Source: Flavobacteriales bacterium (GTDB lineage Bacteria > Bacteroidota > Bacteroidia > Flavobacteriales_F > PHOS-HE28). From it: a DNA stretch of 58,036 nt. Below the pieces are notes generated by a model. The model saw only the letters and a program-made list of their open reading frames with translations, had not been told where the DNA came from and ran no database searches. Below, piece by piece: positions 3,011 through 52,700 of the stretch; within the stretch, counting starts at the first letter, position 1; every line of letters starts with the position of its first letter. Location: contig JAHBUM010000001.1 in the NCBI GenBank assembly GCA_019638075.1, positions 1-58,036 on the forward strand, written 5' to 3'. The position numbers were made by a program, and so were the translations under genes.

Positions 3011-4591
3011 TTAGTTATCCAGGCTCTTCACCAGATCTGCGGCAACCTTCTCCAGCGTACTGGTGATCTGGTCGTTGTAATCACCCTTCTTCAACGCTTC
3101 CAGCACATCGTTGTGCTTGTTGCGCAGCATGGTGATGAACTCGGCTTCGAACTGCTTGATGTTCTTCACCGGCACCTTGCTCAGCAGGCCCTTGGTACCG
3201 CAGTAGATGATGGCGATCTGCTCTTCCACGCGCACCGGGCTGTTCTGCCCCTGCTTCAGGATCTCCACGTTGCGGGCGCCTTTATCCAACACCGCTTTCG
3301 TAGCAGCGTCGAGGTCGGAACCGAACTTCGAGAAGGCCTCCAATTCGCGATAAGCGGCCTGGTCAAGCTTCAGCGTACCGGCCACTTTCTTCATGGACTT
3401 GATCTGCGCGTTGCCACCTACGCGGCTCACGCTGATACCCACGTTGATGGCGGGGCGCACACCGCTGAGGAACAGGTTGCTCTCCAGGAAGATCTGTCCA
3501 TCGGTGATGGAGATCACGTTCGTGGGGATGTAGGCGGATACGTCACCGGCCTGCGTTTCGATGATCGGCAGGGCGGTCAAGGAACCACCACCTTTCACTT
3601 TGCCTTTCAGCGAAGCCGGCAGATCGTTCATCTGTTCAGCTACGCTTTGGTCGGCGGTCACTTTCGCGGCGCGCTCCAGCAGACGGCTGTGCAGGTAGAA
3701 CACGTCACCAGGATAAGCCTCACGTCCGGGAGGACGACGCAGCAGCAGCGACACTTCGCGGTAGGCCACGGCTTGCTTCGAGAGATCATCGTACACGATC
3801 AGTGCAGGACGACCGGTATCGCGGAAGTATTCGCCGATGGCGGCACCGGTGAACGGCGCGTAGAATTGCATCGGGGCAGGGTCGCTGGCGTTGGCGGCCA
3901 CCACCGTGGTGTAGGCCATGGCGCCTGCTTCCTCCAACACCTTCACCGTACCGGCCACCGTGGAGCCTTTCTGTCCGACGGCCACGTAGATGCAGTACAC
4001 CGGTTTGCCGGCGTCGAAGAATTCCTTCTGGTTGATGATCGTATCGATCGCCACCGTGCTCTTGCCGGTCTGGCGGTCACCGATGATCAATTCGCGCTGG
4101 CCACGGCCCACGGGGATCATGGCGTCGATGGCCTTGATACCCGTTTGCAGCGGCTCCTTCACAGGCTCACGGTAGATCACACCGGGGGCTTTGCGCTCGA
4201 TCGGCATCTCGAACAGCTCGCCGCTGATCGGGCCTTTCCCGTCGATGGGTTCGCCGAGGGTGTTCACCACACGGCCGACGATGCCTTCGCCGGTCTTGAT
4301 GCTCGCGATGCGCTTGGTACGCTTCACCGTGTCACCTTCCTTGATCCCCACGCTGGGGCCAAGCAGTACGGCACCCACGTTGTCCTCCTCCAAGTTCAGC
4401 ACGATGGCCTGCAGGCCGCTGTTGAACTCGATGAGCTCACCGCTCTGCACGCCCTTCAGGCCGTAGATGCGGGCGATGCCATCACCCACTTGCAGCACGG
4501 TACCGACCTCCTCGAGCTCGGCCTCGCTGCGGAAACCGGCGAGTTCTTGTTTCAGGATCGCCGATACTTCGGCGGGTTGCACTTGAGCCAT
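3011..4591 (-). CDS. atpA: F0F1 ATP synthase subunit alpha
   Basis: 526 aa. Walker A GDRQTGKS, ...[25 protein letters not shown]. Confidence 0.98.
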
Positions 4592-8533: not shown

Positions 8534-11164
8534 CTACTGACGGTCAAGGTAATTCTGTGTGAAGAAGGAGGTGTACCCTTCCACATCCTTGCTTTTGTAC
8601 AGTTGGGTGTAGTTGGCGGTGGTGATGGGGAAGGCCGGGTAGCCTTGGTCGTTGATGCCTGCAAGCTGCTCGCTGCCGCCGGTGAACAGGTTGTGGTACT
8701 GCATGGCCATGTCCTTGGTGGTGAAGCCGCTGATCAGTACCACTTGATGCTGCGGATCGAGGAAACTGCTGGTGATCTCCACGGGCGTGCTGGGGTAGTA
8801 CTGCTGGTTGAAGGCCGATATGCGGGTCTTCACGCTGTTCAGGTCGGAGCCTTCGTTGGGGATGATGAGGGCGAAGAAATGCGGTCCCGGATCGGTGGCG
8901 TACACCCCGGCGGCACCCTGCTTGGGCGGTGGTGGCGGGGCGCTGCCGGCCGTGCGGTCAAGTGCGGCCAGCATCTCGGTGGCGGCGCGCTCCTCATCGG
9001 TTCCGGCGAATTTGGTCTTCACCTCGTTCAGCGCCGCCCGGAACCCGGCATGGTCGCGCAGCCCGCCCAAGGCCAGTGCCCGCAGCAGGTGGTACTTGGG
9101 GAGGAAGTGATTGCGGGGCTCGTTCTCGATCACGCCGTCGCAGGAAACGATCACCGAGCTGTACATGTGCTGGCGGTACCGGTCATAGACCTCCTTGTAG
9201 GCCGTCTCCTCCTCCTTTCTGCGCGCATCGTCCGCTTGCAGGATATTGGGGTCCCGCACCAGGCGTGCGAACTCCGAATCGGGCCAGCGCTCCTGGATCA
9301 CTCCGGCGTAGTAGGCCGAGCCGAGGCCATCGGGCGCGAAATAGTTCGTGGTCTGTTCCTTCTCCAAGTAGATGCGATAGAGCTGGTAGAAGCTCTCGGG
9401 CGTGTAGCGGCATTCCTCGAAACGGCCGTTGAGCACCTCGAAGCTCTCGATCGCGTTGTCGGCGTCCTTCAGCTGCTCCTTGTAGATCATGCCGCTCGTG
9501 TACAGGGCGGCGCAGATGCGGGCGTTGGAGGCCTCCAGCGCTACGTCATCCTTGGGGATGTCCTTCGTGTGGAAGGCGGGATCCTTCCATTCGGCCTCCT
9601 TCTTCTCGGCAGCTTCCTTTTCCTCGGCCTCCTCCTTTTCCTCCGGCAGGTCGGCCAGCGCGCTTCCGCTCTTGTCCTTGCGCCGCCAGTCGTCCTCCAG
9701 CGGCCGGTTGCCCCATTTCTTGCGGAAGCTGGAAAGGCCGCGCCCGATCTGTTGCGGGTCGTAGAAGTACCAGGCACCCCGGGTCACGCCACCCGTTGGT
9801 GGCTGGGGTTTTCCCGCATCGGGGTTGGCCTCGGCGGCGGCGCGGGCCAGCTCCTCGGCCTGGAGTCGCTCCGCTTCGGCCTGCTCCCGCGCACGGATGA
9901 TGCCGCGGATCTTCTTGTCCAGGTCCTTCTCGTCGAGCTGGGCCAGCGCCTGTAGACTATCCTCCCGTTCGATGATGGCGAGCTGTTCCACCAGTTCGCC
10001 CAGCACCCTGGCCCGCGTGCTCACCTCGTCGTGCCGCACGTGTTCCTCGCTCAGGATGGTCTGCGTGGAATCGTAGTACCGCTGTGCGCTGGCGTAGATC
10101 CGGTCCTCGAAATAGAGGTCGGCCAGCTTCAGGAAGGTCTTGGCCTTCTGCCGCGTGTCCGTGGTGCTTACGCGGGCGCTGGTCATCAGGTGCGCGATCG
10201 CCGAGGAGTCCTTGCGTTCCTTCAGATCAAGGTCCGCCAAGGCATAGTGCAGCATGTCGAAGTGGTCGATGTGCTTGTCATCGCGCAGCATGCGGTTCAG
10301 CTTCTTGCGGATCTCCTTGCTGTTGCCTTTGCTGAAGGCCAGCGCCTGGAAGATCTGCGTGTGGAAGGCCATCTCGTAGGGCGGGCTCATCCGGGCCACG
10401 GCATCGAACTGCTTGATGGACTTCTCTTCCAGCCCTTTCATCTGGTAGAGCTGCGCCAGCACGAAGGCCCAGCGCACGCGCTCCTTCTTGGTGCGCGCAT
10501 TGGGTATGGCGGCCTCCAGATGCACGATGGCGTCATCCACCTTGCCGCGCTTCAGGGCCAATTCGGCCTTCACGGCTTCCAGTTCGCCGTGATCGAACCG
10601 CTTGGGCAGCACCTTCTGGTTGTCGATCTCGTCCAAGGCGCTCTGGGCCTTCCCGAACTGCTCCAGGAGGATGGCCGTGCGGGCCAGCCACACCAGGCTT
10701 TCGAGGTGGCGGTTCTCTCCTTTGAAACGGCGGCTCACGTAGGTGAACCCGCGTTCGGCCTCGTAGTGGTTCTTCTTGTAGAAGTTGCTCTTGGCGATCA
10801 CGAACCAGGCATCGTCGATCCATGTGTTGCGCTCCTTGCCGCCGATGTTCATCGAATGCCGCTCGATGACGACCGAGCACTTGTCGATGCACTTCTCCAG
10901 CTCGGGGATGGCCGTCTTCGCCTGCGCCTCGGTGCCGTAGATGAACAGCGGCAGCACCTCGTCGTAGTTGTCCACGTGGGCATCTTCCATGCCGGCCACC
11001 ACCTCTTTCAGCTTCTCGTTGGCGTTGAACCAGCCGTTGTCGCGGGTGGTGAGGCGGTGGAAGGTGCGGTTCAGGAAGGCATCCTTCTCCTGCGAGCAGC
11101 CCACGCCAAGGAGCACCACCAGCAGGAGTGCGCCGAACGATCGGAAGGGCCGGGGAAGTCGCAT
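8534..11164 (-). CDS. sprE: T9SS periplasmic TPR lipoprotein PorW/SprE
   Basis: 876 aa. Lipobox LLGVGC. N-terminus CSQEKDAFLNRTFHRLTTRDNGWFNANEKL resembles the SprE/PorW N-terminus. TPR-like helical repeats and an acidic/Lys-rich linker. Size matches SprE (about 870 aa). Confidence 0.7.
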   Translation of the reverse strand: MRLPRPFRSFGALLLVVLLGVGCSQEKDAFLNRTFHRLTTRDNGWFNANEKLKEVVAGMEDAHVDNYDEVLPLFIYGTEAQAKTAIPELEKCIDKCSVVIERHSMNIGGKERNTWIDDAWFVIAKSNFYKKNHYEAERGFTYVSRRFKGENRHLESLVWLARTAILLEQFGKAQSALDEIDNQKVLPKRFDHGELEAVKAELALKRGKVDDAIVHLEAAIPNARTKKERVRWAFVLAQLYQMKGLEEKSIKQFDAVARMSPPYEMAFHTQIFQALAFSKGNSKEIRKKLNRMLRDDKHIDHFDMLHYALADLDLKERKDSSAIAHLMTSARVSTTDTRQKAKTFLKLADLYFEDRIYASAQRYYDSTQTILSEEHVRHDEVSTRARVLGELVEQLAIIEREDSLQALAQLDEKDLDKKIRGIIRAREQAEAERLQAEELARAAAEANPDAGKPQPPTGGVTRGAWYFYDPQQIGRGLSSFRKKWGNRPLEDDWRRKDKSGSALADLPEEKEEAEEKEAAEKKEAEWKDPAFHTKDIPKDDVALEASNARICAALYTSGMIYKEQLKDADNAIESFEVLNGRFEECRYTPESFYQLYRIYLEKEQTTNYFAPDGLGSAYYAGVIQERWPDSEFARLVRDPNILQADDARRKEEETAYKEVYDRYRQHMYSSVIVSCDGVIENEPRNHFLPKYHLLRALALGGLRDHAGFRAALNEVKTKFAGTDEERAATEMLAALDRTAGSAPPPPPKQGAAGVYATDPGPHFFALIIPNEGSDLNSVKTRISAFNQQYYPSTPVEITSSFLDPQHQVVLISGFTTKDMAMQYHNLFTGGSEQLAGINDQGYPAFPITTANYTQLYKSKDVEGYTSFFTQNYLDRQ

Positions 11165-17004: not shown

Positions 17005-17207
17005 AACTTGCCCTTCTTCCGCAGCTTCTTCTCAAGCGCTTCCAACGTGATGGTCGGTTGACCGGCGCGCTGCTCGGCGATGAGCGCGTCGATCATATCC
17101 TCCACTTCTTCGCGCTTCTTGTCCAGCACGGCCACATCGATCTGGAGGAACCGTTTGTCGTTGACTTCGTCGTGAAGAATGGTCACGCCTTTCATGGCTC
17201 TGGGCAT
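17001..17207 (-). CDS. cognate antitoxin (family not recognised)
   Basis: 68 aa, acidic/Lys-rich, immediately upstream of and overlapping the RelE/ParE toxin. Confidence 0.6.
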   Translation of the reverse strand: MPRAMKGVTILHDEVNDKRFLQIDVAVLDKKREEVEDMIDALIAEQRAGQPTITLEALEKKLRKKGKL

Positions 17208-24695: not shown

Positions 24696-24726
24696 GCTTC
24701 TGCATGATGATATATTACCCATCCCG

Positions 24727-24751
24727 GGATCGACGTATTTAATGTCGATCC
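24727..24751. promoter_or_regulatory. palindromic operator candidate GGATCGAC-N9-GTCGATCC upstream of dinB
   Basis: Read directly from sequence. Ends 8 nt before ATG 24759. The same arms and spacing occur at 30760-30782 before dnaE2. Confidence 0.55.
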
Positions 24752-24758
24752 GCCCTCG

Positions 24759-25985
24759 ATGTCCTCCGCCGAGCAACGCGTCATCCTGCACCTGGACCTG
24801 GACAGCTTCTTCGTGAGCGTGGAGCGGCTGCACAACCCGGCCCTGGTGGGCAAACCCGTGATCGTGGGTGCCGACAGCGACCGCGGCGTGGTGGCCAGCT
24901 GCAGCTACGAGGCCCGGGCCTACGGTGTGCGCAGCGCCATGCCCATGCGCACCGCCAAGCAGCTCTGCCCCGACGCCATCATCGTGCGCGGCAACAGCGG
25001 TGCCTACATGGAGATGAGCGATGTGGTGACCGAGCTCATCCGCGCGCGCGTGCCGCTGTTCGAGAAGACCAGCGTGGACGAGTTCTACGTGGACCTCACG
25101 GGCACGGAGAAGTTCTTCGGCGCGGAGAAGCTGGCGCGCGATGTGCGGGCGGCGATCCTGCGCGAAACCCACCTGCCCAACAGCTTCGGCCTCTCCGCGA
25201 ACAAGACCGTGAGCAAGGTGGCCACCGATGATGCGAAGCCCAACGGCACCAAGCAGATCGCGCACGGCACCGAGAAGCCCTACCTGGCCCCCAAGCCCAT
25301 CGAGGCCATCCCGGGCGTGGGCGGCAAGACGGCGCATCTGCTGCGCAGCATGGGCGTGGCGCGCATCGCCACCATGCAGGAGATGCCCATGGAGTTGCTG
25401 GAACGGCTGCTCGGCGCGCACGGCCCCGTGCTGTGGCGCAAGGCCAACGGCATCGACCCCAGCCCCGTGGTGCCCTGGCACGAACGCAAGAGCATCGGCA
25501 CTGAACGCACCTTCGCCACCGACACGCTCGACCTGGTGAAGGTGCGCGGCATGCTCACCGCCATGGCCGAGAGCCTGGCCTTCCAGCTGCGCCGCGGGCG
25601 CCGGCTCACGGGCTGTGTGAACGTGCGCGTACGCTATGCCGACATGGAGACGCACGACCGCCAGCAGCGCATCCCCTACACCGCCTGCGACCACCTGCTG
25701 TTGCCGCTGGTGCACGACCTCTTCCACAAACTCTACGACCGCCGGCAGCGCATCCGGCTCATCGGCGTGCGCTTCAGCAACCTCGTGGGCGGCGGCCACC
25801 AGATGGACGCCTTCACCGACACCGAGGAGGCCATGCGGCTGTACCAGGCCATGGACAAGATCCGCCAGCGCTTCGGCGACCGCACCGTGATGCGCGCCAG
25901 CGGCATGGACGCGCACAGCATCGGCCGTATGGACGATCCGTTCGACGGGCAGGCACCGCTGCTGCTGGCCAACCGACGTACTTAG
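24759..25985 (+). CDS. dinB: DNA polymerase IV (Y-family)
   Basis: 408 aa. ILHLDLDSFFVSVE...SCSYEARAYGVRSAMP...VDEFYVDLTG...KTVSKVATD.AKPNG are the Y-family catalytic motifs. Confidence 0.93.
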   Translation: MSSAEQRVILHLDLDSFFVSVERLHNPALVGKPVIVGADSDRGVVASCSYEARAYGVRSAMPMRTAKQLCPDAIIVRGNSGAYMEMSDVVTELIRARVPLFEKTSVDEFYVDLTGTEKFFGAEKLARDVRAAILRETHLPNSFGLSANKTVSKVATDDAKPNGTKQIAHGTEKPYLAPKPIEAIPGVGGKTAHLLRSMGVARIATMQEMPMELLERLLGAHGPVLWRKANGIDPSPVVPWHERKSIGTERTFATDTLDLVKVRGMLTAMAESLAFQLRRGRRLTGCVNVRVRYADMETHDRQQRIPYTACDHLLLPLVHDLFHKLYDRRQRIRLIGVRFSNLVGGGHQMDAFTDTEEAMRLYQAMDKIRQRFGDRTVMRASGMDAHSIGRMDDPFDGQAPLLLANRRT

Positions 25986-27663: not shown

Positions 27664-30600
27664 CTATTTGGCCCCGTACCGCGGATCGGGCTTCCACGGC
27701 AATTTCATGAACCGTTCGGTGCGCAGGGCGCAATGCCCGAACTCCTCCTCCACCACACCGGTGAGCAGATACACACCGCGCCCACGGAAGGGATGGCGCG
27801 CGGCCACCTGCGGGAACTGCGTGCTGTCCCAGAAGTCGCCCGCGGGATCGATGAACGAACCGAAGGTCATCTGTTGCCCGTAGTGCGTGGTGGTCGTCTT
27901 CACGTGGATCAGATAGCCGCGCATGGCGACGCGGCGGCCGATGTGCTGGGGCATGTCGCGCGCGCCGATGTGCGGCAGGTCCGTGGGAATGGTGTCGGCG
28001 GTCGCGTCCACCAGCGTGAACGGATCGCACAGCGGGAAGCCCAGCAGCTCCAGCTCGTCGTAGGCATCGGCCAGCGGATGATGGTGCAGCGGTGGCAGCG
28101 CAGGCTCTTCCACACGCGTGGCGAACAGATCATGACCCGCACCGACACGTGCCGGACGATGCAGCAGGGCCAGGTCCCACAACAGCTGCGGCTTGCTGCG
28201 ACCGGTGAAGCGCAACGCCCCGGCACGCACCAGCAGACGCGCCTGCTCGAGCTCCAGCGGCACACGCCGCAGCAGGTCCTGCAGATCGGTGAAGGGCCCG
28301 CGGCGACGCCGTTCTTCCAGCACCGCGTGCACCGTATCGCTCGTGAGGCCTTTGATGTGCGCGAGGCCGAGTTGGATCCGGGGAGCCGGTCGGGAGTTGT
28401 CGGTCGTGGGTCGGTCGCGCTCACCGTGACAACGCACAACCGACCACTGACACCCCCTCCTTGCCAACGAACACCACTCCTCGCTCGTGTTCACGCACGG
28501 CGCCTCGATCACCGCGCCCGCCCGTTCCGCCTCGTGCAGGTAGAACTCGGTGCGGTAGAACCCACCGAAGTTGTTGGCCACGGCCACTAGGAACTCCAGC
28601 GGGTGGTGGGCCTTGAGGTAGAGGCTCTGGTAGCTCTCCACGGCATAGCTCGCACTGTGGCCCTTGGCGAAGCTGAAGCTGGCGAAGCTTTCGATCTGGC
28701 GCCAGATCTCCTCCACCTCCTGCGGTGGATGGCCGAACCGTTGGCAATTGGCGAAGAACTTCCGCTCCACTTCCTTGAAGTCGTCCCGTTCGCGGTAGCG
28801 CAGGTTCATGCCGCGCCGCACCTGATCGGCCTCGGACAAGTTCAAGCCACCGTACTGCACCGCCACCTTGATCACGTCCTCCTGGTACACCATCACGCCG
28901 TAGGTCTCGGGCATGATCTCCAGCAGTCGCTTGGGGGCCTGCTTGCGCCGTTCGGGGTCGTGGTGACGCAGCAGGTACTCGCGCATCATGCCGCTCTCGG
29001 CCACGCCCGGGCGGATGATGCTGCTGGCCGCCACCAGCCCGAGGTAGTCCTCCACGCGCAGCTTCTTCAGCAGCATGCGCATGGCCGGGCTCTCCACGTA
29101 GAAGCAGCCGATGGTGTCGCCCTTGCGCAGCAGCTCCTTGATCGCGGGGTCCTGCTTGAAGCGCGGGATGTCGTGGATGTCGACGGGCTCCGGGGCCGCG
29201 GCGTTCACCATCTCCACCGCATCGCGGATGTGGCCCAGGCCGCGCTGGCTCAGCAGATCGAACTTGTGCAGACCCAGGTCCTCGCACTCCAGCATGCTGA
29301 TCTGTGTCACCGGAAAGCCTTTGGGCGGGCGATGCAGCGCGGTGAAGTGCGTCACGGGCCTCTCGGTGATCACCACGCCCCCGGCATGGATGCCGAACTG
29401 GTGCGGCATGCCGATGAGCCGTTGCGCATGCCGCACCACCGCGCGCGCCACGCGGTCCACGGTGCCTGCCCGCACCTGCGCGCTGGGAGCGCCGCGCCCC
29501 CAGCCGCCTTCGTCGCCCGCGCTCAGCGCATCGATCTCTGCGGGTGGCAGGCCGAGCGCCTTGCCCAGCTCACGCACCGCACCCCGCCATTGGAAGGTGG
29601 TGTAGGTGGCGATCTGCGCGGCATGGATGCGTCCCGCGTCGGGACCGTTGTACTTCGAGAAGATGTAGCGGTACACCTCGTCGCGGTCCTTCCAGCTGAA
29701 GTCGATGTCGAAGTCGGGCGGGTTGCGCCGCGCGGGATTGATGAAGCGCTCGAAGTAGAGGTCCAATTCCAGCGGGTCCACGTCGGTGATCCCGAGGCAA
29801 TAGGCCACCAGGCTGTTGGCGCCGCTGCCGCGCCCCACGTGGAAGAAGCCCCGGCTCCGCGCGAAGTCCACGATGTCCTGGTTGATACGGAAGTAGCTCA
29901 CGAAGCCCTTCTGGTCGATCACGTCGAGCTCGTGGCGCAACCGCTCCAAGGCCCGCTGCGACGGCCGTCCGTAGCGGGTGTGCAGCCCGCGCAAGGCATC
30001 GGCGTGCAGGCGCTCGCGGTCCTCGCGCTCGTCGGCGCCGAAACTGCGCCAGGTCTTGTCGCTGGCGTCGAAGGCGATGATGCATTCCTCCAGCAGGGCC
30101 ATGGTGTTCCGCGGCAGGTGCGGATGGTCCTGGTAGATGCGCATCACCTCGTCGGATGAGCGGAACACTTCGTCGGGCCGGGCCAGTTCCTCGGGTGGTA
30201 GCAGGCTCAGCACGGTGTTGTGGGCCACGGTGCGCAGCAGCCGGTGCAGATCGAACTCGCGATGGCGTTCCGTGCCGGGATCGCGGAAGGTCACCGGCAT
30301 CCAGGCCACGAGGTCCTTGGTGGATCGGGCCCAGGGGCTGAAGGGCAGGCGCGTGAGGTCGCTGGGGCGCACGCCGATGCGTTCGTGCGGCAGTAGCGTG
30401 CGGTGCGGCGTGGTGAAGGGCAGGATGAAGTACGTGTGCTCCAGCAGCGGCGGTCGTTCGGGCAGCGGCGTGCCATCGAGCAGGTGGGTACTGAGGAGCG
30501 TGTTGAGCGCTTGGAAGCCCTCGTTGTTGCGGGCCAATCCGATGTACAGCAGGTGCGACCCTTGCCGGAACTCGATGCCCACCACGGGCCGCACACCGTG

Positions 30601-30759
30601 CTTCGGTGCGTCGCGCACGAAGTCGGGCACGCCGGCCGTGCAGTGGATGTCGGTGAGCGCGCACACCGTGGCACCCGCGCGTGCGGCCTCCTCCAGCAAG
30701 GCGCCGGGCCGCAGCACGCCGTACTTCAGGCTGAACCAGCTGTGGCAGTTGAGGAACAT
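27664..30759 (-). CDS. dnaE2: error-prone DNA polymerase III alpha-subunit homolog (DnaE2-like, about 1031 aa)
   Basis: PHP domain MFLNCHSWFSLKYGVL...ALTDIH. Pol III alpha core FHVGRGSGANSLVAYCLGITDVDP...FERFINPAR...PDFDIDF...HAGGVVI. Its short length fits DnaE2 rather than replicative DnaE. ATG 30759 chosen over TTG 30792. Confidence 0.85.
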   Translation of the reverse strand: MFLNCHSWFSLKYGVLRPGALLEEAARAGATVCALTDIHCTAGVPDFVRDAPKHGVRPVVGIEFRQGSHLLYIGLARNNEGFQALNTLLSTHLLDGTPLPERPPLLEHTYFILPFTTPHRTLLPHERIGVRPSDLTRLPFSPWARSTKDLVAWMPVTFRDPGTERHREFDLHRLLRTVAHNTVLSLLPPEELARPDEVFRSSDEVMRIYQDHPHLPRNTMALLEECIIAFDASDKTWRSFGADEREDRERLHADALRGLHTRYGRPSQRALERLRHELDVIDQKGFVSYFRINQDIVDFARSRGFFHVGRGSGANSLVAYCLGITDVDPLELDLYFERFINPARRNPPDFDIDFSWKDRDEVYRYIFSKYNGPDAGRIHAAQIATYTTFQWRGAVRELGKALGLPPAEIDALSAGDEGGWGRGAPSAQVRAGTVDRVARAVVRHAQRLIGMPHQFGIHAGGVVITERPVTHFTALHRPPKGFPVTQISMLECEDLGLHKFDLLSQRGLGHIRDAVEMVNAAAPEPVDIHDIPRFKQDPAIKELLRKGDTIGCFYVESPAMRMLLKKLRVEDYLGLVAASSIIRPGVAESGMMREYLLRHHDPERRKQAPKRLLEIMPETYGVMVYQEDVIKVAVQYGGLNLSEADQVRRGMNLRYRERDDFKEVERKFFANCQRFGHPPQEVEEIWRQIESFASFSFAKGHSASYAVESYQSLYLKAHHPLEFLVAVANNFGGFYRTEFYLHEAERAGAVIEAPCVNTSEEWCSLARRGCQWSVVRCHGERDRPTTDNSRPAPRIQLGLAHIKGLTSDTVHAVLEERRRRGPFTDLQDLLRRVPLELEQARLLVRAGALRFTGRSKPQLLWDLALLHRPARVGAGHDLFATRVEEPALPPLHHHPLADAYDELELLGFPLCDPFTLVDATADTIPTDLPHIGARDMPQHIGRRVAMRGYLIHVKTTTTHYGQQMTFGSFIDPAGDFWDSTQFPQVAARHPFRGRGVYLLTGVVEEEFGHCALRTERFMKLPWKPDPRYGAK

Positions 30760-30782
30760 GATCGACGGATATTGCGTCGATC
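30760..30782. promoter_or_regulatory. palindromic operator candidate GATCGAC-N9-GTCGATC abutting the dnaE2 start codon
   Basis: Read directly from sequence. An extra GTCGATC half-site lies at 30784-30790. Confidence 0.55.
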
Positions 30783-30789
30783 CGTCGAT

Positions 30790-30799
30790 CAAAAAGATA
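30790..30799 (-). promoter_or_regulatory. candidate -7-like box TAtcTTTTTG for dnaE2
   Basis: Plus-strand caaaaagata equals minus-strand TATCTTTTTG, 7 nt upstream of the operator candidate. Confidence 0.3.
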
Positions 30800-41853: not shown

Positions 41854-44800
41854 CTACTCCACCACAACCCTTACACCTTCGCTGTGTGACGAAAACTCCG
41901 GTGCATACATGCACATCGCGGTGGTAAGCCCATTGCTCATGTCGCCTGCGTGGGTCACTTTCAGTTCGTACTCGAACACGTAGGTGCCCGGCGCGATGCG
42001 GTCGAAGAAGAAGTGCATGCCCGCGTCGCGGATGCTTTGGTAATAGCCGAGGCCGCCCTGCCACTTGTAGCCGCTGAGAGCTTCCACAGGCTCCAGCCCG
42101 GCCGCGCGTTGGTCCTTCAGGTGTACGTAGTCGAGGTGGCGGTCGGTGCGCAGTTCGATGCGGATGGTGATGCGGTCGCCGGGGGATAGCTTGGCATTCC
42201 CGCCCAACTCCACCAACTGCGGACCCGCATCGGTGGGCTTCTTCAGCAGCACCTGTTTCTTCAGGCTGAAGGGACTCTCATGCGGCGTCACCTTGTCCAT
42301 GCGTTCGAGGTATTGCCAGTGCAGCGCGCCCCATTGCACACCATCCTTCGCGGTGCTTACCGTTACACGGCCCATGCTTGGCTTGATGGCTTCGCCGGTC
42401 CAGCGCTCCTCGAAGTAGCCGGTGCCCGCTTCCGCCTTGTCCGGTTTCACGGTGTGGTCGCCCACTTTGATCGTTGGCGCATTGTCGGTGGTGAGCCAGT
42501 CATCACCGGTCAGGAGTAGCGCGTAGCAGGCATCGGCCGTGGCTTTGGTGGTCTTCCAATCGGTGGTCTGCTTCAGCTTCAACAGGTACTGGCGTAGTTG
42601 GTCCACGCTGGCCTTGTCCTTGCCCACTTCGTGGAAGGCTTCGATCAGGAGGGCATGCGTTTCCGTCGGGAATTCATTCCATACGTAACCCGCGTTGAAG
42701 CCCTTCCAGTACATGCCCAACTCTTCGCTGCGTGTGGCGCGTTCACCCAGCGACTTCAGGATGAGCTGTGCGGTGGTCTTGTCGCCGAGGCGGTCGAAGG
42801 CCAGTGCGAGCATCGCCTGTTCCTGTAGACCGCGCTGCACCCATGTTTCCTTGCAACGCGCGGCATAGAAGTCGATGGCCGTGCGCGTGGTGCCGTCGAT
42901 GGGCCAGCGTCGGAAGAAGGTGCGCGTGTACAACAGGTGTGCTTCCAACGCACCGGGCACGTACTTCTCGCGATCCTCGGGTTTCGTGTTCTTCACCAGT
43001 TCGCGGTAGCTGCGGTCCACATCGGCATCGAGCCACTGCACGGCGCGGCGCACCATCTGCTCGTTCGGTCCATCGCCGCGTGTATCGGCGGCCTTCAACG
43101 TTTCGAGATGCCCGAATCCCGCCACGATGTGCTGCGTGATGTAGCGGCTTTCGCGCATGCCGCTCCACCACGGCCATGCACCGTTCGGCAGTTGCATGTC
43201 GCGCAGTTTCTTCAGCGATGCCTGCTCTTCCGAGGCCATGCGTTGCATGTCGAAGAAGAGGGCGATGCGGCGCTTGCGTTCACCTTCGTCCTTCGCGTTG
43301 AGCACCCACGGTGTTCCTTCCAGCACCACGCTCTTCAGCTCGGGGTTCTTTTCGAGGGCGGAGAGAAATGCACCCTCACCCCCCGGCCCCCTCTCCGAGG
43401 GAGAAGGGGAACGCCATTGCTCGAACACAGTGCGCACAACGGGTCGTTGCTCCACGATGTGTGTGGCGAGGCGGTTGGCGTAGTAGCGGCTGAAGGTCTG
43501 CTCGGCGCATTCGTGCGGGAACTCCATCAGGTAGGGCAATGCCTGCACCGCGTACCATGCGGGGTTGGGTGTGAATTCCAGCTTGAGGCTGCGCTGTTGC
43601 AACGTGGTGCTGGTGTTCTTCACGAGCTTGTCCAGCGTGAATGTCTTGGTGCCTGCTTTCGTTACCGGCAACGGCAGGCTTTCGGTCACGAGCACCTTGT
43701 CCGTAAGCACCGGCAGCGGACGTTCTTCGCCATCGCTGATGCCCACTTGTACGGGCTTGCTTCGCTTCCGGCTTCTTGACCGCCGGGTGGGTGTGGCTGA
43801 CTGCTCCGTGGCTACGATGCGCACGCTCACCACGTCCACGTCTTCGGGCACGGTGATGGGCCACGCGGCCGTCGCGCTCGCCCCCGGCGCTGCGGTGAAC
43901 GCCTGTTCGGTGCGCTGCTGCGTGAAGCGCGTGGTGATCTCCCTGCCGCTCACCGGATCGAAGAGCGAGAGACGCACATTGCCATGTACGGTGCCTTCGG
44001 TCGCGTTGATCTTGGCGGTGAGCGTGATGCGGTCGCCGTGGCGCAGGTAGCGCGGCAGGTTGGGCACCACCATCAGCGGCTTGCTCGTGGTGGCCTGCTT
44101 GCTGAACTGCGCAAGCTCCAACTCCTTCGTATGCGCAAGGCCCATCACCTTCCAGCGCGTGAGCGCATCGGGCGTGGTGAACCGCAACACCACGCTGCCA
44201 TCGCGGTCGGTGAGCAGGTCGGGGAAGAAGAAGGCCGTTTCGCGGAAGTCGGTGCGGATGGGCTGGGGTGCTGATACGTCCCCGGTCTGCCGATCGCTCT
44301 CCCACGACTCATCCAAAGGTTCGTGCGCTGCGGCGTTCTTCCCTTCGACATTACCACGCCAATCGAACATCCCAGATGCGTCAGCGGGAGCTGCCGCGTT
44401 GGCCACCGCACTCCGCATGACTGCACCATTGGGTTCATATAGGCGTCGATGATAGATCCGATGAGAATAAAAGGACGATAACTGTGGATACACCCAGTTC
44501 GTATCCCCCGGAAGCCCGATACCCGTGTTCCACATGCTGCCCTGCCGCGTCGCGAACGGCTCACTGCGCTGCCAACCGTACTCCGCTCCGTTCATCGGCC
44601 ATTGGAACATGCTCCACGCATGCGGCGTGAAATGATCCAGCGAGGCATCGTACATCACGGCGAGCAGTTGCGCGGCCACCTTCTCCTTTTTCGGACCGGT
44701 GATGCGCAGGCGCCATTCCTCCTTCGCGCCGGGCAGCAGCTTGTCGCGGAAGCTCATCCATTCCACCTGCAACTCCTTGTTGGTCCACGGCACGTCGATC

Positions 44801-47800
44801 GCGATGGTCTTCTGGTGCGCGCGGCCACGTTCCACACAGAGGAAATGCACGGCGAAGCCACCGCGATCGCTCTCCTGCACGGGCAGTTCGATCAACTGCT
44901 GGGTGTTGTTCAGTACGAACGAACGGCTCGCGGCGATGCGGCCATCGCGTTCCACTTCCATCAGCACGCGGCCCGCTGGTAGGGCGCTGCTCAACAACAA
45001 CACGGCCTTCTCTCCCGGCTCGCAACGCGCTTTCACGGCTTCCACGTGGAAGGCCTCGTCGATGAAGCCCGTGTTCTGGATCGCGGTGTCGTACAGCGTC
45101 ACCAGCCGCGCCACTTTCACCGGCACGCCGTGCGCATCCTTCGCCTCCACTTCGATGCGGTACATGCCCACGGTGAAGTCGTGCATGCCGTTCACTTGCA
45201 AGGCGCGGCCTTGTGCGCGATGATCCTTCAGCTCGAAGACCACCCGGCGTACCGGCCAGCTCATGGGATCATCGGCAAGGTGCGTGTTGGGCAATTCTCC
45301 TTCAAGGATGCGGTCCGGGCGCTCCCACAGGCGCTCGCGGCGCGGTGCATCCGGTGGCGGCACCAGTTCCACGATGCGGATGTCCATCGGCATGTCCACC
45401 TCTTCGCTGTTGAGGTTCTTCACGCGCACGTCGATGCTGTCGGTGGTGGCGCGGTCCAACGCTTCACCGATGCGCAGGTCGATGTCGATGCTGCGGTAGG
45501 CGAGGCTGAGGCTCGTTGTTCCTGTCTGTGTTTCGCCGCTGATGTCGGTGGCATCGGCGGTGATGGAGAAGGTGAACGAAGGGTCGGACTTCTGCGGGAA
45601 TGCCTTGTCCGCTTCGGCTTGGAAGGTGACGGTGAAGCGGCCCTGCGCATCGCACACCGCAGTGCCACTCGCCACTTCGGTGCTGCGGCCCCACGGTAGT
45701 CCGCGCCAGCCCCAGCCGCACCACCACGGCATCATCGCGCTGCGGTCCGCATGCCAGTACACGGTGGCGCCATCGAGCGGCACACCGGCGTAGCTCTTCG
45801 CCGTGCCAGTGATCGTTACATCACCGCCGAGCTTCGGGGTGCCCGCGATCGGATCGAAGACCACCTCGAAGGTGGGGCGCTTGTATTCCTCCACCTGTAT
45901 GTACGCGCTGCCATGCTTTTCTTCGATGCGCATGCCGCCGGTGAGCGTGCCCGCAGGCGTGGTGAACTTCCCGTGGAACGCGCCGAAGTCATCGGTGGTC
46001 ACGTTCGCAGAATCGATCAGCTGTCCGTTCACATCGAAGAAGCGCACCACCGTTCGCAGCCCCGCCCTCACACCGGCCTGCTTGGCCTTGCGCGATACCA
46101 CGATGCCCTTGAAGAGCAGTTCCTGACCGGGGCGATAGATCGCGCGATCGGTGAAGAGGAAGGTGCGTACCTCTTCCTGCGGCTCGGCCATCGCGCGGCC
46201 GTAGTTCCATTGCTCGCCCGTGCGGTAGCGGTCGGCGCCCTGATCGAAGACGTGGTACACCGGCAGGTGATCGGTCAATGCGGGGAACTTCACGCGGCCT
46301 TCGGCATCGGTGATGGCGTCGCCCGCGCGCTCATGGGTCCGCTGTTGCGACCATAGCTCGGAGCGTTTCCAGCGGACCACCTTCACCCCGGCACGCGGCG
46401 CACCCGTGGCACGGTCCAGCACGATGGCCTCGGCCTCCTGCTTCACCGTGCGGTGCGTTACAGCGAAGCCTGTGACCCAGAAGAAGGCATGGGCCTGCGC
46501 ACCCTGCTCCGCGCGGAAGACGCCATCGCGCGCCACCAAGATCGCATACTGACCAGCGGGCAGCGCAGCCACCGGAAGCTCGATCGCATGCTCGTTCAGG
46601 TCGCCATCATCGGGCAGTTCCACGGCCCATTCCTTCACGGGCTTCTGGCCCACCAGCCACTTCTCCAGTTCGTTGCGCACGGGCTCCTCCTCATCGCGCA
46701 AGCGGATCACGCGCACGCCCACCTTGGGCACGTTGCGGTAGTACACGGCGATCGCGAAGTCCTTGTCCGGCACGTTGGCCTCCTCCACTTGGATGCGCAG
46801 CGACGGAAGCTCCAGTTCCGCTTTCAACTGCGCACACCGCCTCGCACCGAACGAGCCGGGGAAACGGGCGATCTCCTCTTCGCACAAAGTGTGGGCCGTG
46901 CGGTTCTCCCATTTCCACGCATCATCGGCCAGCCGTTGGTAGTTGCCACCCTGTTCCTTGTGCCACAGCGCCACGGCATGCGTCACCTCGGCGCGGCAAC
47001 TGTCGTTGGGCAGGCGGCTGCGCAGCGTGTTGAGGGCTTCGAGATACAGCGTATCTTTTTCAGGCACCACGCTGTTCTCGCGCACGTAGGCGAGGCGTTG
47101 CAGGGTGACATCCACCAGCGCATCGGGGGCGTTCGCGTTGAGGTGCGCGCGCTCCAGCCGCTGGTACAGGCGCAGGGCTTGGAACTCCCATGCCGTGCTA
47201 TCGCGATGTGCGAGCGCGCGGAACACGAAGGGCTCGAAGAGCGCGAAGTCCTTCGGGTCGTCCAGCTTGAAGCGCCACGCCGGTTCGGTGATGCGCGTTT
47301 CGCTGTTGGTGAACACTTCCAATGCGCGGTGGGCAAGCACATCGAACACGGTGGGGCGCAGGTGCAATGCCGTTCCTTCCCCCACGAGCAGTGCGCCCAG
47401 ATCGCCCACGGGGATGCGCAGCAATGTGTCCGCAGGGTCCAGCGAGGCGCGGTAATGCGCGATCACCTTGTCCATGTACATGCGTTGCGTCCATGTGGCG
47501 GGATCGTCGGTGGGCACGGCCAGTTCGGTGCGCTCAAGGATGTTCCAGCTATCTTCCTCGTACCGCTGCCACCACCCTTCTGCCACGGTGGAATGCATCA
47601 ATTGTTTCAACGGCACCGGCGCAGAAGCAGCGCGTGCCTCCATGGCGAACAGCACGCTGTCGGCGGAGCCGCCGGAGGCCTCGATGAAGGCGCTGCGCTG
47701 GCACCATGCACGATACTCGTTGCGCCAATCGCCGACGATGAGCGCTTCGGCGAGAAGCTCCTCGGTGCGCTTGAGCGCGCTGGCGTACTGTCCGAGGCGT

Positions 47801-47931
47801 TGCAACGAATCCACGGCCGTCCAGCGTGGGTCGGGTGTGCTGGCGCCCGTGCTCACGGCTTCGCGCTTGGAACGGCAGGTGATGAGCAGCAGGGCGAACG
47901 AAAGCAGTAGTATGGTGCGGGCAAGGCGCAT
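41854..47931 (-). CDS. alpha-2-macroglobulin family lipoprotein with intact thioester motif
   Basis: 2025 aa from ATG 47931 (MRLARTILLLSFALLLITC lipobox). CAEQ thioester (FPHECAEQTF) encoded at 43498-43509. Size and MG-domain-like beta content fit the bacterial YfhM/ECAM type. Confidence 0.85.
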   Translation of the reverse strand: MRLARTILLLSFALLLITCRSKREAVSTGASTPDPRWTAVDSLQRLGQYASALKRTEELLAEALIVGDWRNEYRAWCQRSAFIEASGGSADSVLFAMEARAASAPVPLKQLMHSTVAEGWWQRYEEDSWNILERTELAVPTDDPATWTQRMYMDKVIAHYRASLDPADTLLRIPVGDLGALLVGEGTALHLRPTVFDVLAHRALEVFTNSETRITEPAWRFKLDDPKDFALFEPFVFRALAHRDSTAWEFQALRLYQRLERAHLNANAPDALVDVTLQRLAYVRENSVVPEKDTLYLEALNTLRSRLPNDSCRAEVTHAVALWHKEQGGNYQRLADDAWKWENRTAHTLCEEEIARFPGSFGARRCAQLKAELELPSLRIQVEEANVPDKDFAIAVYYRNVPKVGVRVIRLRDEEEPVRNELEKWLVGQKPVKEWAVELPDDGDLNEHAIELPVAALPAGQYAILVARDGVFRAEQGAQAHAFFWVTGFAVTHRTVKQEAEAIVLDRATGAPRAGVKVVRWKRSELWSQQRTHERAGDAITDAEGRVKFPALTDHLPVYHVFDQGADRYRTGEQWNYGRAMAEPQEEVRTFLFTDRAIYRPGQELLFKGIVVSRKAKQAGVRAGLRTVVRFFDVNGQLIDSANVTTDDFGAFHGKFTTPAGTLTGGMRIEEKHGSAYIQVEEYKRPTFEVVFDPIAGTPKLGGDVTITGTAKSYAGVPLDGATVYWHADRSAMMPWWCGWGWRGLPWGRSTEVASGTAVCDAQGRFTVTFQAEADKAFPQKSDPSFTFSITADATDISGETQTGTTSLSLAYRSIDIDLRIGEALDRATTDSIDVRVKNLNSEEVDMPMDIRIVELVPPPDAPRRERLWERPDRILEGELPNTHLADDPMSWPVRRVVFELKDHRAQGRALQVNGMHDFTVGMYRIEVEAKDAHGVPVKVARLVTLYDTAIQNTGFIDEAFHVEAVKARCEPGEKAVLLLSSALPAGRVLMEVERDGRIAASRSFVLNNTQQLIELPVQESDRGGFAVHFLCVERGRAHQKTIAIDVPWTNKELQVEWMSFRDKLLPGAKEEWRLRITGPKKEKVAAQLLAVMYDASLDHFTPHAWSMFQWPMNGAEYGWQRSEPFATRQGSMWNTGIGLPGDTNWVYPQLSSFYSHRIYHRRLYEPNGAVMRSAVANAAAPADASGMFDWRGNVEGKNAAAHEPLDESWESDRQTGDVSAPQPIRTDFRETAFFFPDLLTDRDGSVVLRFTTPDALTRWKVMGLAHTKELELAQFSKQATTSKPLMVVPNLPRYLRHGDRITLTAKINATEGTVHGNVRLSLFDPVSGREITTRFTQQRTEQAFTAAPGASATAAWPITVPEDVDVVSVRIVATEQSATPTRRSRSRKRSKPVQVGISDGEERPLPVLTDKVLVTESLPLPVTKAGTKTFTLDKLVKNTSTTLQQRSLKLEFTPNPAWYAVQALPYLMEFPHECAEQTFSRYYANRLATHIVEQRPVVRTVFEQWRSPSPSERGPGGEGAFLSALEKNPELKSVVLEGTPWVLNAKDEGERKRRIALFFDMQRMASEEQASLKKLRDMQLPNGAWPWWSGMRESRYITQHIVAGFGHLETLKAADTRGDGPNEQMVRRAVQWLDADVDRSYRELVKNTKPEDREKYVPGALEAHLLYTRTFFRRWPIDGTTRTAIDFYAARCKETWVQRGLQEQAMLALAFDRLGDKTTAQLILKSLGERATRSEELGMYWKGFNAGYVWNEFPTETHALLIEAFHEVGKDKASVDQLRQYLLKLKQTTDWKTTKATADACYALLLTGDDWLTTDNAPTIKVGDHTVKPDKAEAGTGYFEERWTGEAIKPSMGRVTVSTAKDGVQWGALHWQYLERMDKVTPHESPFSLKKQVLLKKPTDAGPQLVELGGNAKLSPGDRITIRIELRTDRHLDYVHLKDQRAAGLEPVEALSGYKWQGGLGYYQSIRDAGMHFFFDRIAPGTYVFEYELKVTHAGDMSNGLTTAMCMYAPEFSSHSEGVRVVVE

Positions 47932-48082
47932 GCGTGTTGGGTTCGGATGCAAAGGTCCGAACGTTCGTGGAAGGGATAACGTGTTTGGGCGAAGGATGAT
48001 GTGGAGGTGGGCGCGATGCCGCATGACGGCCATGGTGCGTAGCCGCTGGCCATGTTGATGCGCGTCACGCCATCTTTGTGCC

Positions 48083-48628
48083 ATGCGGGTCCCAACGGCC
48101 CTGTTGATAGGCACGCTCATAGCAGCTTGTTCCACTGCGGATCATCCCAATAGCGGGTCCTTGGAGGCTACGTCCGTTGAAGCTGAGCCTGTTCCTGTGG
48201 AGGGTCTCGACGCGGATGAGGAATACGACCCCACGATGGGCCATGCCGAGTTCCATGTCACCATCGCGGACACGAGCCATGACTTCGCCCGCTTGGAAGC
48301 GTTGATGCAGGAGCTGGCGGCGACCCTTCCGGCCAGCATCGACATGATGGGCCGCCGCTACCATCCCGAACGCGACTCGTTGTTGCTGCCCTTCGACGAT
48401 GCCGATGAGCTTTACGCTGGATCCTATTTCCCCCGTCGCTTCCCATCGGGAGACCTGAGCATCGAGTACCTTGACAACTACACGACCGCGTCGCCGGGTG
48501 CATTCGCGTTGGTGACCGGTATCTGGGAGACCTCGCAACAGGCCGACTCCGCGTTGCGGGGGCTGGCCCCCATGGCACCTTCCGCGTTCACTGTGCAGGC
48601 GGAGTTGTTCTTGGGGTGCATGCATTGA
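48083..48628 (+). CDS. hypothetical lipoprotein
   Basis: 181 aa. MRVPTALLIGTLIAAC lipobox. No family recognised. Confidence 0.5.
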   Translation: MRVPTALLIGTLIAACSTADHPNSGSLEATSVEAEPVPVEGLDADEEYDPTMGHAEFHVTIADTSHDFARLEALMQELAATLPASIDMMGRRYHPERDSLLLPFDDADELYAGSYFPRRFPSGDLSIEYLDNYTTASPGAFALVTGIWETSQQADSALRGLAPMAPSAFTVQAELFLGCMH

Positions 48629-49750: not shown

Positions 49751-52700
49751 TTATCGGGTCAGTGTCACTTTGCCTGCGCGGTCATGCGTTTCGCCGGTCG
49801 TTGTCGTGGCGACCACGGAATACACATACACGCCGTTGATCTCGGCCTTGCCCTTGTGCGTTCCATCCCAGCCGGCCGTGGGATCGGTGGTCTCGAAGAC
49901 GAGCTCGCCCCAGCCGTTGTAGATCTTCAGTTCCATCGTCTCGAAGGGGCCGCCGCGCACGAAGAACACATCGTTCACGCCATCGCCGTTCGGGCTGAAC
50001 GCATTCGGCAGTTTCGGCGGCAGGATGTCCTTCACCTCGATGGTGATCAGCAGCGAGTCACGATCCATGCAGCCGTTCGCGTTCGTCACCGTTTGCACGA
50101 TGAGGTACTGGCCGGGCTGTGCGTACTCATGCACCGGTGAAGCGGTGATCGCTCCCTGACCATCGCCGAAGTCATAACGCCAGTTGGTGGCACCCATGGA
50201 TGTATCGGCGAAGGCGATCGGTGTCTCTGCAAGCAGTTCGCCGTCCATGCTGAACCCTGCGATCGGCGCAGCCAATACCTCGATGGTACGGGTGCTCGTG
50301 GCACTGCAACCGTTCTGCGCGAACACGGTGAGGGTGGCCGTGTATTCACCGGGAGCATCGAACGTCGCGTTCACCTGCGGCCCGTTGCCCGTGATGCCGT
50401 TGTCGAAGCTCCAGCTCCAACCGATGATGGGCGATCCGCTGGTGGTGCTGGCATCCATGAACCTCGTCTCCGATCCCGCGCAGGCGTTGGTGAGGCCGAA
50501 CGCCGGTTGCAGCGGGTTGGTGAACGAGAGGAACAGTGTGTCGCTGGCCGCCGCACACACACCGTTGCCGGTGGTGGTGAGGATCATGCGTACGGTTCCC
50601 AGTTGCTCATCCGTAGCACCGGGCTGATAGGTGGCGTTGAGGTCGGTATTGCTGGGGAGGAAGACACCAGCGCCGTTCGACGACCACAGCACACCGGCAG
50701 CACCTGTGGATGATGCACCAAGTTGAACAGCGGCCGAGGCATCGCACACGTTGATGTCGGCGCCTGCGCTCACCGTGGGCTTCTGTTGCAGGCTCACCAC
50801 CATGGTATCGGTGTGTGCCGGGCAGCCCATGTTGCCGGTCGTGGCCAGCACGAAGCGCAGTTCACCGAAGACCATGTCCGTGGCACTTGGCACGTAAGCC
50901 GCTCCGAGCGTGGTGTTATCCGGGAGGAAGGTGCCCGTACCCGTGGTGCTCCACACGCCGCCGCTCACACCGGTGATGGCGCCGTTCATCTGGATGGGGT
51001 TGCCATCGGCGCAGATCGACTGGTCGATGCCTGCATTGGCGATGCGCGTGGGTCCGATGTCCACGAAGAGCGAATCGGAGGTGTTGCCACAGGTGCCGGT
51101 ACCGTATCCGGTGAGGATCAGGTACACACCGCCTGCGATGCTGTCGTTGGCCGTGGGTGTGTACACCGCGTTGGTCACATCAGCCGCCGGGCTGAAGCTG
51201 CCCGTGCCCGTGGTGAACCACTGCACGCTTCCTGCGTTCTGCACAGCGCCATTGAGTTGAACATCTTCGAGGCCATCGCACAGGATCACACTCGCGCCTG
51301 CATCCACGGTCGGTGGCACGTGGTAGCTCACCACTAGGGTATCGCGACCAGCAGCACAGCCCTGGTTCTCGGTGGTGCGCAGGATCAGCGATACGTTGCC
51401 GATCACGAAATCCGCCGGACCGGGAACGTACGTTGCGTTGAGCGCTGTGGCACTTGGCGTGAACGAACCTGTTCCTGTTGTGCTCCAGATGCCGGTAGTG
51501 GTACCTGTGACCGCTCCGTTCAACACGATGTTCGGGTCGGTGCTGCATGCGATCACATCGGCACCGGCTGTTGCTGCGAGACCCCCGCCGAAGGTGATCA
51601 CGAGCTGGTCGCTCACTGCTGCGCACGGTGCTACACCAATGGTGGTTACGGTCAAAGTGATGCTGCCTGCCGTGCTATCTGCAGCGCTCGGCGTGTAGAG
51701 CGTGGTTAGGGCGTTAGTGTTCAAGAAGGTTCCCGTGCCGGAGGTGGTCCAGGTACCCGAAGGCGCGTTCACCGCATTGGCGATCAGCTGCACCGGTGCG
51801 GCCGTGCAGGCTACGATGTCCGCTCCCGCATTGATCTGTGGCAGCGCTTGAACACTTACCTGCATCACGTCGTTCACCGGGGCGCAGGAGCCATTGGTGA
51901 TCGTGGTCACGCGCAGTTGTACACCACCGTTGGCGATGTCCGCCGCACTCAACGTGTAGCTCGCTTGTGGATCGGTGGTGTTACTGAAGAAGCCGCTGCC
52001 ATTGCTGCTCCACAACACGCCCTGGGCTCCACCACTATAATTGGCGTTCAGTTGCACGAGCGGAGAGTTCGCGCACACCACTTGATCATCACCCGCGAAG
52101 GCAAAGCTGGTGTTGCCGAAGGTGAGCACCAGTTGGTCCTGTACCGGTGGGCATGTGCCCGTGTTGGTGCTGAGCAAGGTGAGCACCACGCTGCCGTTGG
52201 CCACGTCGGCCGCGGAGAAGTGGTACTGCGCGTTCAGCACATCCGGACCGGGCACGAAGGAACCCGTACCCGTGGCGGACCAAAGACCCGACGGCGAACC
52301 GTTGATGATCTGGCCTTGCAGTTGAGCGTAGGTGCCGAGCACACACACGCTCTGGTCGGGACCAGCGTTGGCGGCCAGGCCATCGGTGAGGTAGATCGTC
52401 ATCTGATCCGTCACCACGTTGCAGTTCGCGTTGTTCAGCGAGGTCAGCGTGAAGGTGATGGCACCCGCCGACACATCGGCCGCGCTGGCTGCGTAGGTGG
52501 TGCTGAGCGAACCGGCGTTGGCGATGGTGCCTGTACCGGTCGTGCTCCAGATGCCCGTGGTGGTGATACCGGAGATCACGCCGTTCAGGTCGAAGCTGCT
52601 CACCTGGTTGCAATAGGTCTGGTCGGCACCGGCGTGTACGGTGGGCGCAGGCGTCAATTCCAACACCAGCGCATCGGTGGCCGCATTGCAGCTATTGAGC

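Follow-up and report, generated by a model that had tools for sequence, protein, structure and literature searches.

The window (the whole stretch of DNA analysed, 58,036 nucleotides, with a G+C content of about 63%) carries an ATP synthase operon, dxr and a class II aminoacyl-tRNA synthetase gene (Gly/His/Pro/Ser/Thr group) as housekeeping genes, and also encodes type IX secretion cargo proteins and two-component systems. Two ORFs of 2093 and 2749 aa on the minus strand (41854-48135 and 49751-58000) fill its last 16 kb, and giant SprB/CHU_C proteins are found near the regulator gene in two related loci, L202 and L203. The dinB gene at 24759-25985 (plus strand) codes for a 408-aa Y-family DNA polymerase IV with the Pfam domains IMS, IMS_C and IMS_HHH; the protein passes the NCBIfam Pol IV model NF002677 (276 bits, cut-off 256) and the catalytic acidic motifs LDLDSFF and SVDEFY are present in its translation. 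A second Pol III alpha paralog of 1031 aa (Pfam PHP, DNA_pol3_alpha, DNA_pol3_finger and HHH_6) is encoded at 27664-30759 on the minus strand. This polymerase scores 496 bits with the NCBIfam DnaE2 model NF004225 (cut-off 939) and 518 bits with the DnaE model (cut-off 1002), and because it falls under both cut-offs it is called only DnaE2-like here. The sequence-only reading had taken the two genes for the error-prone polymerases DinB and DnaE2; the Pol IV part holds, while the DnaE2 part is reduced to a likeness, as its score stays below the family cut-off, imuA and imuB are absent and the partner is a DinB whose catalytic residues are intact. dinB and the dnaE2-like gene converge on a type IX secretion cargo gene that lies between them, and an M61 peptidase gene is divergent from the dnaE2-like gene.

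Exact matches to GATCGAC-N9-GTCGATC occur twice in the window, at 24728-24750 (GATCGACGTATTTAATGTCGATC) and 30760-30782 (GATCGACGGATATTGCGTCGATC), so that the same palindrome does stand before both polymerase genes as first described. Putative operator 1 reads GATCGAC-GTATTTAAT-GTCGATC, with a GAC-N9-GTC core and an AT-rich centre; one further complementary base on each side (an extra G/C pair) extends it to 24727-24751, and it ends 7-8 nt upstream of the dinB ATG (24759). Putative operator 2 reads GATCGAC-GCAATATCC-GTCGATC in the gene sense and directly abuts the minus-strand ATG (30759-30757) of the dnaE2-like gene; both sites are annotated without strand. In 100 dinucleotide-preserving shuffles of the window the exact palindrome was found 0 times (0 expected) against two in the real sequence, in agreement with the earlier judgement that a two-copy palindrome is very unlikely by chance. 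When up to two mismatches were allowed, three matches were found in the window versus 0.42 expected, the third of which, at 17072, is non-palindromic.

The -7 promoter consensus of Bacteroidota is TAnnTTTG, and transcription starts were inferred from this box consensus. Putative -7 boxes were read from the sequence at 24711-24718 on the plus strand for dinB (TATATTAC) and at 30799-30792 on the minus strand for the dnaE2-like gene (TATCTTTT). The gap between box and palindrome is 9 nt in both promoters, and site 1 is found, as reported before, downstream of an AT-rich box and 8 nt before the dinB ATG. An additional direct half-site, also read by eye, lies at 30784-30790 (GTCGATC on the plus strand, GATCGAC in the gene sense, no strand assigned), one base from operator 2, and fills the space between the -7 box and the palindrome in the dnaE2-like promoter; CCGTC is often present at the equivalent place in related dnaE2-like promoters. 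This half-site may provide an auxiliary contact or represent an overlapping second site. A search of Rfam gave no match at the sites or leaders, the sole match being a tRNA in locus L004. The sequence-only reading had also noted that the window lacks a repressor gene, and indeed no HTH+S24 gene was found in it by tblastn or by Pfam searches of most called genes.

The dyad in related loci

A DinB query against species-representative genomes yielded 80 loci, which together with the window amount to 1.25 Mb. About 70 of the 80 loci belong to uncultured Flavobacteriales (DinB identity 74-97%) and a few to Prolixibacteraceae/Draconibacterium, Marinilabiliaceae and Cytophagales (Algoriphagus, Belliella), with a DinB identity of 54-58%. 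Several relatives presumably come from activated sludge and freshwater, to go by the names of their genome records. With x = 9 the pattern ATCGAC-Nx-GTCGAT has 23 matches in the 1.25 Mb, and with any x from 5 to 8 or from 10 to 13 it has 0-1; GAC-N7-CCGTC has 67 matches versus 6-16 for other spacings. The spacing is rigid: among the spacings tested, enrichment is limited to the 9-nt spacer.

The motif compiled from 75 sites is T-Y-GAC-R-N2-WWW-N2-C-GTC-R-A with an AT-rich centre. The GAC/GTC core is invariant in all 75, which is partly circular because the matrix was built from sites picked for a GAC/GTC core; this circularity does not touch the flanks, spacer composition or spacing statistics. 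The base flanking the core is a pyrimidine in 75/75 sites, the first spacer base is a purine in 74/75, and C precedes GTC in 67/75. The matrix was built without the window sites, so that the scores of operator 1 (25.2 bits) and operator 2 (28.8 bits) come from the sites of other genomes only. A scan of the 1.25 Mb at a threshold of at least 14 bits gave 96 matches, against 3-6 in block shuffles. The compiled site list accounts for 73 of these 96, and 16 of the remaining 23 are additional sites upstream of dinB; about 89 of the 96 strong matches thus stand at the expected promoters.

Conservation at the orthologous promoters, which the earlier proposal had named as a test, was found. A site of at least 14 bits lies within 500 nt upstream of dinB in 67/77 loci (within 60 nt in 44), and the dinB loci without a site are mainly those of distant families or with truncated flanks. 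For the dnaE2-like gene, a site lies within 60 nt of the start in 20/24 loci; of the four exceptions, L071-L073 have the gene as the second in a dinB operon, and the best site in L035 reaches 11 bits. The distance from the orthologous sites to the gene start is 10-21 nt for dinB and 4-12 nt for the dnaE2-like gene, and the sites always lie 8-9 nt downstream of a conserved cTAnCTTAT box. The motif, its position, its conservation and its promoter specificity were in this way observed directly. In the loci retrieved, the putative targets seen are dinB, the dnaE2-like gene and a regulator/ORF6N unit only; the one uvrA promoter seen there is without a site, and these loci contain no recA.

The half-site is TCGAC in the lineage of the window and TTGAC or ATGAC in relatives; at the equivalent place, TTGAC- or CTGAC-N9-GTCAT is found in the loci from Prolixibacteraceae and Draconibacterium. 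A reading of the palindromes as restriction or Dam (GATC) sites was rejected, as the TTGAC and ATGAC versions are without GATC and the position relative to the promoter is fixed. Three Cytophagales loci, L074 (Arthrospiribacter), L077 and L078 (both Algoriphagus), have TGTTTA-N5-TAAACA before dinB and not GAC-N9-GTC. Two dyads, TGTTTA-N5-TAAACA and TGTTAA-N5-TTAACA, are in fact arranged there in tandem; L074 and L078 carry a homologous S24 regulator gene (44-45% identity) upstream of dinB, and L077 only a fragment of it. These dyads are apparently another specificity variant of the same regulator family. A metagenome-wide search with the exact 14-base pattern matched at least 120 loci, nearly all of those listed being in coding DNA of unrelated high-GC bacteria; those matches were set aside as chance, and the few promoter-like ones, without a recognisable gene, are of no use for defining a regulon.

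Two further elements were observed in the dinB leaders of relatives. A conserved GC-rich element of 150-170 nt, not present in the window, occupies the long leader between operator/promoter and dinB in L004 (9770-9920), L015 (9707-9870), L027 (9680-9828), L028 (9817-9965), L048 (9733-9876), L050 (18-167), L051 (9748-9897), L053 (1948-2091), L058 (9721-9864), L063 (4389-4537), L068 (6597-6746) and L080 (9684-9832), and a copy is found elsewhere in L030 (18483-18632). Its conserved blocks are CCAGGGAUGG, GCGAGGAGG, ACCCCGCAG and ACUACAGCGGACAGCCCG. Folded as a consensus, the element forms 34 pairs at 93% pairing (31-43% in slid controls), and 20 pairs show compensatory changes versus 9.3 +/- 1.9 in shuffles, none of 500 of which reaches 20; no Rfam match was found for the element even at E<=5. 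It is a candidate for an undescribed structured leader RNA, or could instead be a small mobile inverted-repeat element, given that it forms one long hairpin and has the copy elsewhere in L030. The second element is a short upstream ORF, M-(E/Q)-R-T-(I/L)-(L/Q)-H-L-D-L-stop, a copy of the first 10 dinB codons with synonymous changes; directly after it come the hairpin GGGCGCATCATGATGCGCCC and the real dinB ATG. It was seen in L027 (about 9935-10000), L038 (9935-10010), L044 (9950-10012), L048 (9945-10010) and L063 (4581-4645), and also in L047, L050 and L053; the dinB gene of the window is without it. Conservation of the peptide, and not of the DNA, between the copies suggests a dinB leader peptide or a translational-coupling device.

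The regulator gene in relatives

Near dinB or the dnaE2-like gene, 30 loci encode an HTH_3+Peptidase_S24 protein with a length of 267-296 aa. The representative regulator P0001 matches Pfam HTH_3 (PF01381) at 1e-15 and Peptidase_S24 at 26 bits (cut-off 23.3), and A118-G119, S156 (in GDSMPP) and K195 are invariant in the family; these domains and catalytic residues were observed directly. An AlphaFold model of the regulator (mean pLDDT 70; about 90 in the HTH and 60-90 in the beta domain) predicts a five-helix HTH, a beta domain and a C-terminal helix at 247-270, this helix with low confidence. In Foldseek searches the C-terminal domain of the model resembles LexA catalytic domains (TM about 0.5-0.58, rmsd ~3 Å) and phage 186/lambda repressors, and the N-terminal domain resembles the XRE repressors CylR2, ImmR and SinR (TM 0.76-0.87). 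When the regulator sequence was compared with the PDB, XRE HTH domains were the only matches, the S24 match having come through the model and the fold search. Members of the clade are annotated at NCBI as 'LexA family transcriptional regulator'. By domains, residues and predicted structure, the regulator of the relatives fits the non-canonical LexA family, whose members combine an XRE/CI-type HTH at the N-terminus with an S24 domain (Ser/Lys dyad, Ala-Gly site) and have an additional helix at the C-terminus.

In relatives, the sites at regulator genes agree with the expectation of the earlier reading that an HTH+S24 repressor gene would carry the motif at its own promoter. The promoter region directly ahead of the regulator gene carries a site in 9 loci, and in 15 more the site is upstream of a co-oriented ORF6N gene that precedes the regulator. 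In L009, L012 and L059 the site lies 30-56 nt upstream of the regulator gene, and in L017, L034, L039 and L073 the regulator gene is divergent from dinB with one common site. The other arrangement, found in about 15 loci, has the regulator gene preceded by one to three tandem ORF6N (PF10543) genes of the same orientation, the first of which starts 58-61 nt downstream of the site; autoregulation in these 15 loci would need read-through from the ORF6N promoter, since no site lies directly upstream of the regulator gene. Examples of these ORF6N (KilA-N-like) genes are L004:9065-9670 and L063:3777-4289, both on the minus strand, the latter locus with more matches starting at 3669 and 3085. The ORF6N proteins could be co-regulators, anti-repressors or phage remnants.

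The divergent promoters stand back to back, with TATGTTTG or TACATTTG on one strand and TAATTTG on the other, so that one operator spans the polymerase start region and the -33 region on the regulator side. More distant relatives, whose regulators are 63-66% and 50% identical, keep TTGAC-N9-GTCAA in the interval that separates the regulator gene from a dinB-dnaE2 operon. Where the identity is 63-66%, the regulator gene is divergent from the operon and the dyad, the sole such match in each 20-kb locus, directly follows a TATATTAT or TATTTTAT box. Two of the loci, L202 and L203, also have a site at the promoter of the regulator gene.

Probable repressor operators and other readings of the palindromes

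We consider it probable that the palindromes are operators of an SOS-like repressor of the non-canonical LexA type, encoded outside the window. For the binding partner, the RecA dependence and the induction we draw on the precedent of the family (Sanchez-Osuna et al., 2021; PMC8565304). A dimer of a repressor with an XRE/CI-type HTH and a LexA-like S24 domain would recognise the GAC-N9-GTC dyad. The operator begins 9 nt after the -7 box and hence covers approximately the transcription start (+1) to about +25, a placement at which a bound repressor would bar RNA polymerase from the promoter or stop its escape. Upon DNA damage, RecA filaments would trigger self-cleavage of the repressor at Ala-Gly by the Ser/Lys pair, and the cleaved repressor would leave the operators, which would allow synthesis of Pol IV and the DnaE2-like polymerase. 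In the ancestral layout the regulator gene may have faced a dinB-dnaE2 operon across one common operator; in the lineage of the window this operon would have been split, each polymerase gene receiving its own operator. The split arrangement of dinB and the dnaE2-like gene is also found in L005, L009, L019 and others.

The same palindromes might act on RNA, as a hairpin in a short 5' leader that affects translation or mRNA stability. Both window sites are located within the predicted transcript, end 0-7 nt before the ATG, and fold at -15.4 and -18.1 kcal/mol; however, the complementarity of the stem is not conserved, which argues against a hairpin. The 16 sites on the ORF6N side are complementary over 4 bp only (TGAC/GTCA; median -2.4 kcal/mol), 9/21 dnaE2 sites have an uncompensated GCC in the arm, the GAC/GTC bases are constant with no co-variation, and a single site serves divergent gene pairs. 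We regard this reading as very unlikely. Still less credible is a chance or historical repeat, that is, a promoter segment that was copied when the dinB-dnaE2 operon was split and is now functionless. A duplication would yield the layout of box, 9 nt and palindrome that both promoters have, but beyond the dyad and the -7 box no similarity between the two window promoters was evident by inspection, the chance expectation is 0, and in many species both genes retain the dyad even though spacers and flanks have diverged. This conservation across species speaks for excluding chance or a dead duplication.

Somewhat more room is left for a DNA operator of a different factor, either an ORF6N/KilA-N-like protein or an unlinked regulator, which need not respond to damage. 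About 15 loci have the start of an ORF6N gene (PF10543) at a distance of 58-61 nt from the site, and the window encodes neither an ORF6N protein nor an S24 regulator. Against this, the motif stands beside the S24 regulator gene without ORF6N in L009, L012, L017, L034, L039, L059, L073, L202 and L203, and a layout of S24 regulator, dinB and Pol III alpha with a shared dyad is a published pattern. This alternative is unlikely in our view, and operators of a non-canonical LexA-type repressor are the reading that we carry forward. A lineage-specific SOS-type operator bound by an S24/CI-like repressor had been suggested from the two palindromes, and the suggestion is supported by the conservation at orthologous promoters and by the sites at regulator genes of relatives.

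Relation to known SOS repressors and meaning of the finding

Two motifs have been published for the non-canonical LexA proteins of Bacteroidetes, TTGGA-N5-TCCAA and CTAA-N5-TTAG (Sanchez-Osuna et al., 2021; PMC8565304). The sites in Table S8 of that study are TTTGGA-N5-TCCAAA and CTAA-N5-TTAG, and a divergent site, TTAC-N5-GTAA, was verified. In other Bacteroidetes, proteins of the same type bind dyads in front of dinB(-Pol III alpha) and in front of their own genes; EMSA with site-directed mutants and mitomycin C induction mediated by the regulator have been reported for those motifs (PMC8565304). In the tree labels of the study, as read here, Fluviicola taffensis and Owenweeksia hongkongensis have a regulator tag and no motif tag, which fits non-Flavobacteriaceae Flavobacteriales using a motif that the survey (PMC8565304) did not detect. 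In Table S8 the protein ids and locus tags are mismatched and the rows look scrambled, and because of this row pairing the table was not used to say which regulator lacks a site.

Neither published motif was found within 200 nt upstream of the two window genes. Among 76 dinB promoters, TGGA-N5-TCCA is found in 1 and CTAA-N5-TTAG in 0, which is no enrichment, and GGA-N5-TCC is found in 9/76, not above control spacings. The new sites nevertheless share much with the published operators: the same phylum, the same regulator architecture (in relatives), an AT-rich centre, and a fixed-spacing dyad at the promoters of dinB, the Pol III alpha paralog and, in relatives, the regulator gene. Read as GACGG-N5-CCGTC, the dyad has the 15-bp geometry and 5-nt AT-rich spacer of the published non-canonical LexA motifs. 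It differs from them in its conserved GAC and GTC 9 nt apart and in its arms, extended to GATCGAC in this lineage, and the regulon seen here is narrower, being composed of the mutagenic polymerases and the regulator unit. The TGTTTA-N5-TAAACA dyad of the three Cytophagales loci is closer to the published CTAA-type dyads.

Canonical LexA has a winged HTH, its SOS box in E. coli is CTGT-N8-ACAG, and it controls imuA-imuB-dnaE2 cassettes. As in canonical LexA boxes, the dyad overlaps the promoters of error-prone polymerases and the conserved blocks are about 12 bp apart from centre to centre, and the same logic of RecA-stimulated S24 self-cleavage may apply. Unlike the winged HTH of LexA, the DNA-binding domain of the regulator is a predicted five-helix XRE/CI-type HTH. 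The Y-family gene is DinB-like and not ImuB, since the catalytic residues are kept, and, unlike in the imuA-imuB-dnaE2 cassettes, no imuA was seen. Phage CI-type repressors, and the SOS regulators of the HdiR/UmuDAb type by which LexA has been replaced, also combine an HTH with an S24 domain and use palindromic operators. The regulator studied here resembles them in the fusion of an HTH to an S24 self-cleaving domain and in the predicted repression via palindromic operators; unlike them, it is chromosomal, conserved beside polymerase genes across families and not part of a prophage, and its operator sequence is unrelated to theirs.

A full-text literature search gave no paper that contains the motif strings and no more recent publication on an SOS motif of Bacteroidota. 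Within the literature open to such a search, the description of the operator as possibly undescribed in the sequence-only reading stands, and the word is fair because the motif differs from the two published Bacteroidetes motifs. On balance we favour the view that GAC-N9-GTC represents a third, undescribed class of non-canonical LexA operator in non-Flavobacteriaceae Flavobacteriales and Prolixibacteraceae/Draconibacterium-like lineages, with a minimal 'mutagenesis-only' regulon and with the operator duplicated at the split of the dinB-dnaE2 operon.

The finding is unsurprising in principle and of moderate specialist interest. It would carry the SOS system recently discovered in Bacteroidota over to a large clade of high-GC Flavobacteriales, most of it uncultured, and would give the missing recognition sequence for regulators that seemed unregulated. 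With the motif known, the damage regulon of these organisms may be predictable from genomes alone. It would also be one more case in which an S24 repressor switches its DNA specificity while the core targets, the mutagenic polymerases, are retained, and the split operon with its duplicated operator may illustrate how a regulon survives genome rearrangement intact.
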